Shown piece by piece: positions 15,664-21,675 of a DNA stretch of 21,675 nucleotides. How positions within the stretch are numbered: position 1 is the first letter of the stretch; every line of letters begins with the position of its first letter. The notes under the pieces are model-generated. The model saw only the letters and a program-made list of their open reading frames with translations, had not been told where the DNA came from and did no database searches. The stretch is from the IMG/VR virus record IMGVR_UViG_2728369593_000011. One strand, given 5' to 3'. A program made the position numbers and the translations under genes. Source of the DNA: a virus (lineage: Duplodnaviria > Heunggongvirae > Uroviricota > Caudoviricetes).

Positions 15664-16092
15664 AGAACTCACAAGGAAAATGATAAAAGGAATAACACTA
15701 GTGATGTACGCATGGCGCCTCCCGCTAAGTTCTGCAATGATCAAACAGAACTCGCTACGTGCCCTTAAAACTCGATCATTTAGCCCCTCCAAGGAGGATT
15801 CACCATGCGGTTGATTTTTTAATAAACAGTAAACAAAAAAGTCAAGAATTATTCATTCTGTTCTTTCATCATCGGCCACAGCAATACCACAATGCCGCAG
15901 ACCAGAGCGCCATCAGTCAGTACCAACATTATCCTGCTGGTGAAATCCATCATCACCATCACTAAAAGCAGGATCACAACAGCAAGCAGACACAGTTTAT
16001 AAAACAATGTTCAGAAAACGCATTCAGCATGCCTAAGGTTCTATTCCTACGAATAGCCAACTTGCAACTTAAAATATTATTTATGCAGCCAA

Positions 16093-16339: not shown

Positions 16340-16852
16340 TCAAAAAAAATGTTTTTTTATAAATGGCTTATCATAGAAGCATGATACCGATAAAAATCGC
16401 CCATAAGATCTTATCGAAATTGTAACCGCCAGCGCAATCGCTGCTGACAGTAGCAAAAGAGGTACCTGAATCTTCTGTCTCAATATAGAAAACTCAATAA
16501 TTGCCGGCACAAACAATAATTCCACAGCAAAATAAAGGCGAAATACATTTAGCTCTTGCATAGAATGTTTTCTTTTCACTGCGAAAAAGAATACAACACC
16601 AATACCCCAACCGATAAGAAATATAGCAATGACGATAACTGCAAAAAATAAACTTCTGGCAACATCATCAACACCTGCACCTACAATCCACCATGGGAAG
16701 CCGTAGTAAAAAGAAGTACCCCATCCATAGAAATAAGCACTCCCCCATCCAAGGCATCCCATGTAGGCAATAAAAAGTGAAGAACTCCTGAGCAGCGCAC
16801 CATCCTTCATAACCACCCCAATACAAGATGATAACATTGGCTTACAACTCAT
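16340..16852 (-). CDS. Hypothetical polytopic membrane protein (AT-rich cargo gene downstream of PR'/tR')
   Basis: 170-aa ORF rich in aromatic and hydrophobic segments (...GWGSAYFYGWGTSFYYGFPWWIVGAG..., ...FFAVIVIAIFLIGWGIGVVFFFAV...). Likely start at ATG 16810 (MKDGALL) preceded by GGGGTGG. Ends at a TGA inside an A7-CA-T8 tract. Confidence 0.5.
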   Translation of the reverse strand: MSCKPMLSSCIGVVMKDGALLRSSSLFIAYMGCLGWGSAYFYGWGTSFYYGFPWWIVGAGVDDVARSLFFAVIVIAIFLIGWGIGVVFFFAVKRKHSMQELNVFRLYFAVELLFVPAIIEFSILRQKIQVPLLLLSAAIALAVTISIRSYGRFLSVSCFYDKPFIKKHFF

Positions 16853-16949: not shown

Positions 16950-16977
16950 AAAAAAAACCCACTCGGCAGCGGGTTTA
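16950..16977 (-). terminator. tR'-like rho-independent terminator downstream of Q
   Basis: Minus-strand AAACCCGCU-GCCG-AGUGGGUUU (9-bp stem with one G-U pair) running into a U8 tract; about 50 nt downstream of the predicted PR' start. Confidence 0.6.
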
Positions 16978-17009: not shown

Positions 17010-17038
17010 AGTATATGGCTTTTAATCCAGTTTTGCAA
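17010..17038 (-). promoter_or_regulatory. PR'-like late promoter (sigma70 -35 TTGCAA / 17-bp spacer / -10 TATACT) overlapping the 3' end of Q
   Basis: On minus strand: TTGCAA (plus 17033-17038), 17-nt spacer, TATACT (plus 17010-17015). Position matches lambdoid late promoters. Confidence 0.4.
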
Positions 17039-17711
17039 TATTTTGCTGTAAAAATGCTGCCTTTTGTTTTGAACGTGTTCTCGTCACAAGCAATAAAGCA
17101 TCACTATCAAGCTGTAGAAAAATGTGCTTCATTGCAACCCAGCGTTCAGTAAATGTCTCGGACCAGTTTTTTGTTGTCACTCCCACCAATGATGCCAGTG
17201 TCTGGTATTCATAGGCCTCACGCCCTGCAAGTTCGCTCTTCACATCCTGTGCAGCCAGCCAGATTAACGTCTTCAGGCGATCCAGTGTCTTACCTGCAAT
17301 TTTTCTGTTACTTAACAAATCTTTAAACTCGCTCCATGCCCATTGCGTTATGGTGACCTGATGCCCCCATCGAACGCTTTCGCTGTAACACCAAAGCAAC
17401 CATGCTTTCTGATGTTCATCGAGAGACAAAACCGCGCGGCGCCATGAAGAGGTTGAGAATTCAACCGGGCTGACCAAAGCAATGGATGAACCTTTTGCGT
17501 ACGACTGCTTACCGGAAGTCGGCGTATTATCCAGCGTAATCATCTTGCCAGTTACCACATCCAGAATGCGCGGCTTCTTTCGTTTGTATGTACCAGTATC
17601 AAATTGTGCATGCTCCTGCCAGGCTTCGAGCTGGCCTTTCGTTGCTCCGTTCAAGTCAGCAGTAGCTGCCATAAGTTGCTCACGAACATACTGTAAATAT
17701 TGGGTATTCAT
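17022..17711 (-). CDS. Late-gene antitermination protein Q (not lambda-Q or Q21 type)
   Basis: 229 aa from ATG 17711 (MNTQYLQYVREQLMAATADLNGATKGQLEAWQ...LDEHQKAWLLWCYSESVRWGHQVTITQWAWSEF...) with AAAGGA RBS. Sits between the rusA/ylcG nin genes and the lysis cassette, with promoter and terminator immediately downstream. Family call is from context and recalled annotations. Confidence 0.7.
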   Translation of the reverse strand: MNTQYLQYVREQLMAATADLNGATKGQLEAWQEHAQFDTGTYKRKKPRILDVVTGKMITLDNTPTSGKQSYAKGSSIALVSPVEFSTSSWRRAVLSLDEHQKAWLLWCYSESVRWGHQVTITQWAWSEFKDLLSNRKIAGKTLDRLKTLIWLAAQDVKSELAGREAYEYQTLASLVGVTTKNWSETFTERWVAMKHIFLQLDSDALLLVTRTRSKQKAAFLQQNIAKLD

Positions 17712-18184
17712 GCAGTAAATCCTTTCTATATTTTGGCATAATTCTTCAACATTCGGTAATCGTTCAAAACCGAATCGGGGAAACGACATAAGCACAGGAG
17801 CCCCCAGCGACAGCGAAGGAGTTCTGATATATAAGACTCAGACATCATTCATTCCCCGGTTCTCCAATATCTGTTTCACTCATCATCCATAACTACCTGT
17901 AATTGCCCCCCTTTTTTTGTAACAGTTCTTATATTGCTATATAGAATAGCCATTACTAATGCTTTTAAATTTAATAAAATAAAAATTATAAAAAACATAA
18001 AACACCACGCAAACACACTTAATAAAAACACCGTTACATTAAAAGATAATAAAAACCGCAATAAAAAACGAATAAATCAATTGTCTCACGCAATTATAAA
18101 ACATCATATTGATTACGCACCTTGTATTACAAACTCATGTATGTAAAATACGCGCACCATTCAAAAAAAGGAAGACAATAACAT

Positions 18185-19147
18185 ATGAAAAAAAGTGTCA
18201 TCGCTGGCGTCTTTATTGCTCTGTCATTTACCACGTGTTCAGCTATCGCGAACAGCCTTGCATTATCATTAGCAAATGATGATGCAGGGAAGTTTCAACC
18301 AATACTTAATGATATTTATGGCAATAAACATGAAAACAGAGATGATTACTCACAAGGCTTATTTCTGGGATATAGCCACGATATCTCAGACTCGAGCCAA
18401 TTATCTCTCCATATTGCGCAAGATATTTACTCTCCATCAGGCAGTAATAAAAGACACAACACAGCTGTAACTGGAGACAGAGCTTTTAGTGCATACACTC
18501 ACACTGGTATTGAATGGAACTCCCTTGCGAATGACTGGATTCGCTATCGATTAGGTACTGACATAGGTGTTGTTGGCCCCGACGCAGGCGGTCAGAAAGT
18601 ACAAAATAAAGCTCATGAGATTATTGGGGCAGAAAAATATCATGCATGGGATGATCAAATAGAGAATCGCTACGGTTATACTGTAAAAGGGATGCTATCC
18701 ATGACACCAAGTATGGATATTTTAGGTGCTAATGTTGGATTATACCCTGAAGTTTCTGCTGTTACTGGAAACTTATTTCAATATGTAGCATATGGCGCAA
18801 CCATTGCCATTGGTAATGATAAAACCTTCAATTCGGATAATGGCTTTGGTCTGCTGGCTCCCCGTGGTTTAATGCATATGTCCGATACAAGCGGATTCAA
18901 ATACAAGATTTTTGCAGGTATGGAAAGACGAGATGTCAATCGCAACTATACTCTCGAAGGAAAAACAATACAGACGAAACAAACAACAGTATCGCTAAAC
19001 AAAACTGTTGATGAATATCAAGTTGGCGCAACAATTGGGTATGCACCTGTAGCCTTCACACTAGCATTTAATAAAGTAACATCAGAATTCAAGACAGGGG
19101 ATGACTATTCATTTATAAATGGAGCAATCACCTCTTTTTTTAACTGA
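18185..19147 (+). CDS. lpxR: Outer-membrane lipid A 3'-O-deacylase LpxR-like protein
   Basis: 320-aa ORF with signal peptide MKKSVIAGVFIALSFTTCSAIA. Counting from the predicted mature N-terminus (NSLALSLANDD...), N9, D10, S34 and H122 fall on the LpxR active-site positions as I recall them (Asn9, Asp10, Thr34, His122). AGGAAG RBS; AT-rich codon usage. Confidence 0.65.
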   Translation: MKKSVIAGVFIALSFTTCSAIANSLALSLANDDAGKFQPILNDIYGNKHENRDDYSQGLFLGYSHDISDSSQLSLHIAQDIYSPSGSNKRHNTAVTGDRAFSAYTHTGIEWNSLANDWIRYRLGTDIGVVGPDAGGQKVQNKAHEIIGAEKYHAWDDQIENRYGYTVKGMLSMTPSMDILGANVGLYPEVSAVTGNLFQYVAYGATIAIGNDKTFNSDNGFGLLAPRGLMHMSDTSGFKYKIFAGMERRDVNRNYTLEGKTIQTKQTTVSLNKTVDEYQVGATIGYAPVAFTLAFNKVTSEFKTGDDYSFINGAITSFFN

Positions 19148-19175
19148 ATTGAATTCAATCAAAATAACATAAGTC

Positions 19176-19226
19176 CAACAAAAACATAAAGTGCGAAATG
19201 AATGCCAGCTCCATTTATTTCGCACT
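19176..19226 (-). terminator. Stem-loop with minus-strand U-tract between ylcG and lpxR
   Basis: agtgcgaaat (19190-19199) / 17-nt loop / atttcgcact (19217-19226); on the minus strand followed by UUAUGUUUUUGUUGG. Confidence 0.4.
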
Positions 19227-19369
19227 ATAAAAGATTAAAAGTTGCAATAAAATAATAAAATGACTCAGTTACGAAAACCAATAAACTGTGGCCAGTAGTG
19301 AGTCGCTCATCATCGGGCTTTTTGGCGAATGAAATTTAGCTACGCTTTCGAGTCTCATCGTCTTCCCCT

Positions 19370-19504
19370 CTATCCTTTGCAATGACACCACACTTCAAAC
19401 ATTCGTTTCACAACCTCACGACAGTAGAAGCCGTAAGCATCGCGGGTAAGATCGTAGCGATTGCCATAACGCTGGCGCATATATCGTTCGAATGCTTTGT
19501 TCAT
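19370..19504 (-). CDS. ylcG: Small nin-region protein YlcG-like (44 aa)
   Basis: MNKAFERYMRQRYGNRYDLTRDAYGFYCREVVKRMFEVWCHCKG; ATG overlaps the rusA stop (ATGA); position after rusA as in DLP12-type prophages. Below the track cutoff. Confidence 0.6.
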   Translation of the reverse strand: MNKAFERYMRQRYGNRYDLTRDAYGFYCREVVKRMFEVWCHCKG

Positions 19505-19863
19505 GTGTTCTCCAGTTCGGTGATTTTTATTCCAAGCCTTCCGCCTGGTACTTTCACACCACGAATTACGCGAATGTCATCGAATTGCTCGTCGTCTTCC
19601 GCAAATCCGGCGTGGATAAGGGAGTCGAGTAAACCTTTCAGGATGTTGTCGAGGTCGCGGCGGCGGGAGTCTGGAACGTCTGCGATGACTTTGATACGGA
19701 GTCGTGATTTGGTGAAAATGTCTAACTTGAGTTGGCGAATGATTTGCTGAACGTCTTTTCGGTATTTCTGGCCTTTATCGCTGATGTAGTATTGGCTTCC
19801 CCGTCTTCGCCAGTAGGTGTTCACCGACGGCGGGTATGGAAGCACAAACTGATATTCGTTCAT
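19501..19863 (-). CDS. rusA: Holliday junction resolvase RusA
   Basis: 120-aa ORF MNEYQFVLPYPPSVNTYWRRRGSQYYISDKGQKYRKDVQQIIRQLKLDIF...IKVIADVPDSRRRDLDNILKGLLDSLIHAGFAEDDEQFDDIRVIRG... with RusA motifs. Confidence 0.9.
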   Translation of the reverse strand: MNEYQFVLPYPPSVNTYWRRRGSQYYISDKGQKYRKDVQQIIRQLKLDIFTKSRLRIKVIADVPDSRRRDLDNILKGLLDSLIHAGFAEDDEQFDDIRVIRGVKVPGGRLGIKITELENT

Positions 19864-20150
19864 GGCTTAATCTTCCCCTCCTTCAGCAGTATCGCCTGCG
19901 TCCTGATCACGCCTTCGAGGTGGTAAAGTCTGGCGTCTTTGTTGTCGAGGTTATGGGTGCGTCGGTCGATTTCATCGTGACACGCGCTACAAGCCCCATG
20001 CGCCGATCAGGTCGTCAGGCTTCATTCCCGTTCCGCAAATTCCAGCCATCCGGTAATGTGCCAGAACTGTAGTTTCAGGGTTGCCATTGCATACGCCGTA
20101 AATACGTACCTGGCATTCTCTGCCGCGAGCTTCTTTGCGTAGGTTAGCCA

Positions 20151-20151: not shown

Positions 20152-21675
<1,524 letters not shown>

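Follow-up and report, generated by a model that had tools for sequence, protein, structure and literature searches.

Known LpxR systems and the locus compared

The lipid A deacylase LpxR has been described from Salmonella, Yersinia, and enterohaemorrhagic Escherichia coli (EHEC), and the copy compared with them here lies in a 21,675-nt stretch of lambdoid prophage DNA, IMG/VR virus record IMGVR_UViG_2728369593_000011 (this whole stretch is called the window below), in which lpxR was located at 18185-19147 on the + strand. Salmonella LpxR, reportedly described by Rutten in 2009, is said to form a 12-stranded barrel and to use a Ca2+-dependent, phospholipase-A2-like mechanism. Phage lambda carries the outer-membrane-protein morons lom and bor, which have unusual base composition, are expressed from signals of their own, and function in host interaction. 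The canonical EHEC allele displayed 3'-O-deacylase activity (Ogawa 2018, as cited in PMC6393859 and PMC6863877) and was associated with less phagocytosis and less TLR4-dependent signalling (Ogawa 2018, as cited in PMC6393859, PMC6863877, and PMC7649339); the same protein, designated 'MC001', was a protective antigen in mice (PMC6863877). In Yersinia LpxR, the substitutions N9A, D10A, S34A, Q118A, and H122A each abolished lipid A deacylation, and D31 posed a steric block on the deacylation of aminoarabinose-modified lipid A; moreover, the enzyme was latent in the membrane under some conditions, and a catalytically dead form still altered gene expression (PMC3486919). Public annotation, including RefSeq and the phage 434 GenBank record, and published papers already cover lpxR itself, where it sits in the prophage, what it does, and how it is regulated.

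Identity of the lpxR product

The interval 17796-19226 contained a sole long open reading frame (ORF), and the features used in its identification were as follows:

18185-19147, + strand: lpxR coding sequence (CDS), 320 aa including the signal peptide (canonical allele 319 aa), from the ORF list, Pfam, 3FID, and PHROG
18185-18250, + strand: signal peptide, residues 1-22, by inspection of the sequence and 3FID numbering

In a profile search, the lpxR product matched Pfam family LpxR (PF09982) at 136.6 bits against a cut-off of 26 (E = 1.2e-39), with product residues 10-315 aligned on profile positions 2-317 of 323; this was the only Pfam family matched, and the match ran along the whole profile. 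Among solved structures, the single sequence matched was Salmonella LpxR 3FID (E = 4.6e-152): query residues 24-319 were aligned on chain residues 2-296, an alignment that covered the whole mature chain, with 1 gap and 74.0% of its 296 positions identical. PHROG 2309 was additionally matched at 759.7 bits. Given the Pfam and 3FID E-values, the match is not a chance one, and 74% identity with one gap over the full mature chain left no room for a different fold; the 12-stranded barrel is accordingly predicted by homology. The preliminary description of this locus had proposed an LpxR-like lipid A deacylase, and the Pfam score and the identity to 3FID bore it out: in the alignment to Salmonella LpxR and its structure, the Asn, Asp, Ser/Thr, and His residues of the two proteins coincided, and the product was compatible with the LpxR fold. 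ORF 18185-19147 is therefore read, with a probability of roughly 0.93, as encoding LpxR, a predicted outer-membrane beta-barrel enzyme carried as a moron on a lambdoid prophage.

Signal peptide, active site, and predicted function

The N-terminus was composed of MKK, SVIAGVFIALSFTT, and CSAIA, followed by mature N23; by inspection only, it displayed a 14-residue hydrophobic core and the residues A-I-A ahead of N23 as an AxA-type cleavage site. The signal peptide claimed in the preliminary description was confirmed in this way and by the mature start of 3FID. Precursor residue 24 was aligned with 3FID chain residue 2, so that mature numbering equals precursor numbering minus 22. In mature numbering, the product harbored N9, D10, Q16, D31, S34, K67, Q118, H122, E128, and Y130, and the alignment with 3FID was column for column at N31, D32, S56, Q140, H144, and E150 of the precursor. 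PMC6863877 names six conserved active-site residues in EHEC LpxR (Asn 9/31, Asp 10/32, Thr/Ser 34/56, Gln 118/140, His 122/144, and Glu 128/150), and these were the residues present in the LpxR of the window. The earlier assignment of N9, D10, S34, and H122 as catalytic held in that all four were present, but position 34 is Thr in Salmonella.

Activity and immune effect are taken here from homologues and from the literature, as follows. By homology to Salmonella and Yersinia LpxR, the product would be a Ca2+-dependent hydrolase: the Sec signal peptide would be removed before N23, leaving a mature protein of ~297 residues, and insertion of this mature LpxR into the outer membrane would depend on the beta-barrel assembly machinery (BAM). 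H122 would then serve as the general base activating a water molecule, the metal site N9/D10/S34/Q118/E128 would stabilise the oxyanion, and cleavage of the 3'-acyloxyacyl pair would convert hexa-acylated into tetra-acylated lipid A, a poor TLR4/MD-2 stimulus. LpxR would in this manner lower the inflammatory potency of endotoxin. The earlier suggestion that a prophage deacylase remodels the host endotoxin found support in the papers on the deacylase activity and immune-evasion role of the EHEC copy. The D31 block on aminoarabinose-modified lipid A may, by analogy with Yersinia, also operate in the E. coli enzyme.

Cassette structure and junctions

The lpxR gene resided in a cassette whose borders were defined by comparison with lambda and DLP12, and the features of the cassette and its surroundings were as follows:

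17022-17711, - strand: antiterminator Q, 229 aa from the annotated MNT start (the longest ORF reaches 17795), PF06323
17726-17848, - strand: ylcG homologue, NCBIfam NF033498 YlcG, adjoining Q on its upstream side, left cassette junction
17858-18184, + strand: AT-rich upstream region, 28.4% GC, with presumed promoter and regulatory sites
19132, + strand: site of a 1-nt (T) deletion, from alignments to phage 434, O26, and E2865
19190-19226, both strands considered: 15-bp hairpin starting 43 nt past the lpxR stop codon, from folding and inverted-repeat searches
19269-19358, - strand: N-terminal remnant of a lambda-type Q, 29 codons plus stop, from the lambda alignment, right cassette junction
19370-19504, - strand: 44-aa phage ORF overlapping the end of rusA, PHROG 3871 (function unknown, E = 2.3e-30)
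19501-19863, - strand: RusA, flanking phage gene
19987-20151, - strand: truncated YbcO, flanking phage gene
20151-20936, - strand: KilAC/Rha antirepressor (ant), flanking phage gene

The cassette (17858-19287) was 1,430 bp in length with 35.7% GC, had no lambdoid counterpart, and contained lpxR and its flanks only. Its GC content differed from those of the kilobases on its two sides (44.4% and 50.1%) and of the whole window (50.6%); inside it, the lpxR ORF had 39.5% GC (30% at third codon positions), the 327 bp upstream 28.4%, and the 140 bp downstream 27.1%. The AT-richness noted earlier for the gene and its upstream region therefore stood (39.5% and 28.4% versus 50.6%). The neighboring phage genes Q, ylcG, rusA, ybcO, and ant were all on the - strand, opposite to lpxR.

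At the left junction, window 17857 down to 17731 displayed 85% DNA identity to the K-12 DLP12 segment made up of the final 9 nt of rusA and of ylcG, and ORF 17726-17848 matched NCBIfam YlcG at 48 bits against a cut-off of 30 (E = 7.4e-13). The adjoining Q ORF matched Pfam PF06323 (Phage_antiter_Q) at 306 bits, and Q was a 690-bp CDS in the 434, O26, O157, and E2865 records. At the right junction, window 19372 down to 19288 was aligned with lambda 43870-43956, where ninI ends and the first 71 nt of Q follow; the Q remnant matched lambda Q nearly exactly over these 71 nt and diverged beyond them, and it was kept in O157, O26, and phage 434, whose records call it a fragment of Q. In lambda, Q directly follows ninI, and in DLP12, rusA, ylcG, and Q are contiguous, while in the window 1,430 bp lacking lambdoid homology separated the truncated Q from the rusA end and ylcG. 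The cassette thus showed two features of a moron: it parts genes that are neighbors in related phages, and its base composition is unlike that of the surrounding phage DNA. The Q remnant is the scar of the recombination that introduced lpxR, ylcG, and the other type of Q. In the proposed course of events, a 1.43-kb low-GC cassette would have been recombined into the nin-Q junction, truncating the lambda-type Q and placing ylcG and a PF06323-type Q alongside. A search for terminal repeats or insertion sequence remnants where the cassette begins and ends returned nothing beyond short repeats of the quality expected by chance.

Phage 434, O157:H7, O26, and E2865 all had the gene order Q remnant, lpxR, ylcG, and Q; which nin gene adjoined this block on the right was variable, being ninI in O157 and 434, ninH in O26, and the 44-aa ORF of PHROG 3871 in the window. 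A mosaic junction was observed at 19372-19481 (- strand), in the slot between rusA and the Q remnant, with similarity to O26 resuming at 19482. The preliminary description had placed the gene antisense between the nin genes or ylcG on one side and Q on the other; the antisense orientation and the nin-Q location were correct, but ylcG was located at 17726-17848, on the Q side. ORF 19370-19504 was probably the one taken for ylcG there; as a ylcG candidate it was rejected, having no NCBIfam or Pfam match and being dissimilar to K-12 YlcG.

Upstream region and expression signals

A Shine-Dalgarno sequence, AGGAAG, was located at 18169-18174, 10 nt ahead of the lpxR ATG. In EHEC, lpxR transcription needs Pch and Ler (Ogawa 2018, as cited in PMC6393859, PMC6863877, and PMC7649339), and this control, as reported there, implies that lpxR is expressed independently of the phage. 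The 28% GC upstream DNA would be of the kind that is silenced by H-NS and relieved by Ler, in agreement with the dependence on Pch and Ler. It is proposed that transcription of lpxR starts in the AT-rich DNA ahead of the gene and converges with early transcription of the phage, and that activation of the promoter by Pch and Ler, reported for EHEC, would have lipid A remodelled alongside type III secretion.

Salmonella lpxR is repressed by MicF (PMC4651636). When the first 33 nt of K-12 MicF were paired with positions -120 to +200 of lpxR in the window, the best duplex had -13.3 kcal/mol, which was matched by 112 of 300 shuffles, so that this crude test lent no support to control by MicF; lpxR did contain, from about +91, 9 nt that match the MicF 5' end perfectly. 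An inverted repeat of 22 nt with 82% complementarity was observed at 17898-17919 and 18162-18183, its arms being 242 nt apart. The second arm covers the lpxR Shine-Dalgarno sequence, and in principle the ribosome-binding site could be masked by a long leader, or the repeat may be a chance occurrence in AT-rich DNA.

Downstream hairpin and transcription toward Q

On the + strand, the hairpin at 19190-19226 had a folding energy of -19.1 kcal/mol (z = -5.59), equalled by 0 of 200 shuffles, and was followed by A-rich sequence without a U-tail on the lpxR strand; on the - strand, it had -16.6 kcal/mol and was followed by the U-rich tail UUUAUGUUUUUGUUGG. A simple terminator scan did not report this hairpin. 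Since the U-rich tail was present on the - strand only, the hairpin looks more like a candidate intrinsic terminator acting on early phage transcripts that come from the nin side than one acting on lpxR, and it may protect the 3' end of the lpxR mRNA. The preliminary description had mentioned a terminator after ylcG: the hairpin itself is real (z = -5.6), but it is positioned after the Q remnant and not after ylcG. In lambda, terminators between the nin genes and Q (tR2-tR4), read through by N-modified polymerase, are part of the ordinary lambdoid design, and the separation of Q is therefore no special property of the insertion; that Q is separated here from upstream early transcription, as had been suggested, is plausible but unremarkable.

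A putative two-way switch at this site was also considered and is quite unlikely: (i) Pch/Ler-driven lpxR transcription would collide head-on with the early transcript bound for ylcG and Q; (ii) the - strand form of the hairpin would block unmodified early transcription; and (iii) once the prophage is induced, lpxR would be silenced by N-antiterminated transcription, through antisense effects and collision. If such a switch existed, activity of the virulence regulon would dampen Q and hence the late-gene expression of the prophage. Coupling of lpxR and Q expression by transcriptional interference, through their convergent arrangement, is the only reading of this locus with some novelty, and it is speculative.

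Distribution of lpxR

Among 5,426 complete E. coli genomes, 622 contained a match to the 1,431-bp stretch 17796-19226, and in 615 the identity was no less than 99%; the copies were nearly always single and chromosomal, with the annotation 'lipid A deacylase LpxR family protein'. lpxR was found in 218 of 224 EHEC genomes (PMC6863877), and it was absent from K-12 and present in O157:H7 (PMC4651636). Among 50,697 phage records, an LpxR homologue was carried by only two, phage 434 and its derivative 434B, both of which contained the same DNA at 99.7% identity; the morons of phage 434 are mentioned in PMC9119081. As the 434 copy shows, the cassette is able to move with a viable lambdoid phage, and the acquisition of this immune-evasion trait by EHEC and enteropathogenic E. 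coli (EPEC) lineages is explained by the carriage of lpxR on a mobile lambdoid prophage. 434B has DLP12 DNA in place of Q and the lysis region, the crossover lying at ylcG, which adjoins lpxR.

At least three lpxR lineages were recognized in E. coli, and the prophage allele accounted for 620 genomes at a minimum identity of 99%. Two other lineages were observed: (i) a plasmid-borne lineage, ~80% identical, in 20 plasmid places on conjugative or mobilizable plasmids (e.g., NZ_CP157094.1, 51044-52000), some copies of which look truncated (84% coverage) and (ii) a chromosomal lineage, ~72% identical, in 3 genomes (e.g., ECOR29, NZ_CP197071.1, 2931366-2932239).

C-terminal variant and contig quality

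The T deletion at 19132 shifted the frame of the last four codons and changed the C-terminus from ...ITFFF* to ...ITSFFN*. A 76-nt probe across 19132 matched 620 complete genomes, all at 98.7% and none exactly, and the exact 320-aa protein was on record only on the contig of the window itself, AKYH01000002.1 of draft assembly GCA_001605745.1. The A-run 18163-18169, ahead of the ribosome-binding site, had 7 As compared to 8 in phage 434, O26, and E2865; across 17796-19226, the window and E2865 differed by zero substitutions and two single-base deletions, one in this A-run and the other being the T at 19132, within a TT.

Two further run-length differences from O26 and E2865 were found in the same contig: an extra C at 19994, by which ybcO (DUF1364) was truncated to 54 aa, and an extra A in the A-run at 16342, by which the 247-aa membrane-protein gene of O26 was split into parts of 165-170 aa and 79 aa. 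These two differences may be sequencing errors, and because they break neighboring genes, sequencing error is considered the likelier origin of the change at 19132 compared to a real deletion. For the window, the practical outcome is a correct annotation together with a warning of single-base indels in a draft contig, one of which alters the LpxR C-terminus. The contig ended inside a transposase gene with rve and helix-turn-helix domains (20989-21675, + strand), which is probably the reason for the assembly break.

Weighing of alternative explanations

That the ORF encodes a different barrel protein of the outer membrane (PagL-, OmpW-, or porin-like), or arose by chance in AT-rich DNA, the catalytic match being coincidental, has a negligible probability: the LpxR match in Pfam and the 3FID alignment rule out both, LpxR being the sole Pfam family matched and over the full profile length, the identity to a protein of known crystal structure being 74%, and every mutationally defined residue being conserved. 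Some observations do weigh against an active LpxR moron. Carriage of the gene may, by analogy with the latency in Yersinia, be no guarantee of deacylated lipid A. A promoter scan upstream of lpxR returned 6 sites versus 8.1 expected in shuffles, none above chance, and the single + strand match (17919-17947, 9 of 12 positions) was no better than chance. Finally, the allele in the window lacks the C-terminal Phe, and should the deletion be real, assembly of this copy may be poor. Outer-membrane proteins normally need a Phe at the C-terminus for proper assembly (PhoE studies; BAM beta-signal), an aromatic beta-signal of this kind being a general feature of outer-membrane proteins and not specific to LpxR. 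Carried further, the copy in the window would be a crippled allele: a real deletion at 19132 would remove the terminal Phe recognised by BAM, hardly any LpxR, if any, would arrive in the outer membrane, and lipid A would not be deacylated. The deletion is present in the sequence, is shared by none of the 620 genomes, and yields a protein recorded on this contig alone, and the general importance of the terminal Phe is on the same side. Nevertheless, the window is a draft whole-genome shotgun contig that, across 17796-19226, differs from E2865 in nothing but single-base deletions at the A-run and the TT, the mononucleotide-run indels at 19994 and 16342 break neighbors in a pattern typical of sequencing error, and aromatics remain at -2 and -3, with which assembly might persist; a crippled allele is thus unlikely.

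It is also conceivable that the gene is kept mainly for the benefit of the phage, by reducing the adsorption of competing phages or by altering vesicle release through changed lipid A acylation and packing of the outer membrane, with the effect on the animal host as a by-product. Carriage by phage 434, a functional phage from sewage with no tie to a pathogen, would fit such a benefit, as would the position of lpxR in a typical moron slot and the activity-independent effects of dead Yersinia LpxR on gene expression (PMC3486919). This explanation is nonetheless very unlikely: lpxR was nearly confined to EHEC and EPEC lineages positive for the enterocyte effacement locus (LEE), as in the 218 of 224 EHEC genomes above (PMC6863877), the reported control by Pch and Ler together with LEE genes fits a role in infection, 434 and 434B were the only carriers among the phage records, and evidence of phage exclusion was not found. 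An LpxR moron acting on the host endotoxin is therefore retained as the preferred reading.

Other features near Q

Rfam at gathering thresholds gave zero matches across the whole window. Below threshold, a match to STnc100 over the full model length was observed at 15681-15838 (- strand), downstream of Q (36.8 bits versus 47, E = 1.6e-5). The prophage small RNAs PasD1 and PasD2 are STnc100 relatives, and >98% of their hits lay at most 10 kb from a Q gene and lpxR (2026 preprint); 15681-15838 is probably a PasD-type small RNA gene. A terminator-like hairpin with a T-run was observed at 16955-16976 (- strand), 46 nt past the Q stop codon, and a weak STnc240 match that was not significant (E = 0.36) overlapped it. 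Judged from its location, this hairpin would be the terminator of a short late-promoter leader transcript acted on by Q.

Comparison with known systems

The comparison was made with the EHEC/EPEC prophage LpxR, phage 434, Salmonella and Yersinia LpxR, and the lambda morons. The EHEC/EPEC prophage LpxR (WP_000750155.1; lpxR of O157:H7 Sakai, Ogawa et al. 2018) was the closest in DNA, with 99.9% identity over 17796-19226, the same place and orientation, and identical protein residues 1-316; the differences were ...TSFFN (320 aa) in the window versus ...TFFF (319 aa), an A-run one A shorter in the window, and, next to the Q remnant, the 44-aa ORF in the window versus ninH or ninI in EHEC/EPEC genomes. 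Phage 434, a classic phage of the laboratory, carried an intact lpxR, CPT_434_65 (OL657226, 5391-6350), annotated as outer membrane beta-barrel lipid A deacylase, and shared the cassette and its neighbors with the window, from which it differed by two upstream substitutions, two single-base differences (the A-run and 19132), and ninI upstream.

Salmonella Typhimurium LpxR (3FID) and the LpxR of the window shared the same active-site residues and 74% identity across the mature length, but they displayed T34 and G31 versus S34 and D31, respectively. Yersinia enterocolitica LpxR had S34 and D31 in common with the window, and all five residues that inactivate the Yersinia enzyme when mutated (N9, D10, S34, Q118, and H122) were present in the window; in Yersinia, the gene is controlled by PhoPQ, RovA, and temperature. 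Compared to lambda lom and bor, lpxR was alike in being an accessory envelope gene of odd composition in a lambdoid genome, while it belonged to another protein family, had an enzymatic function, and was located antisense at the nin-Q junction.

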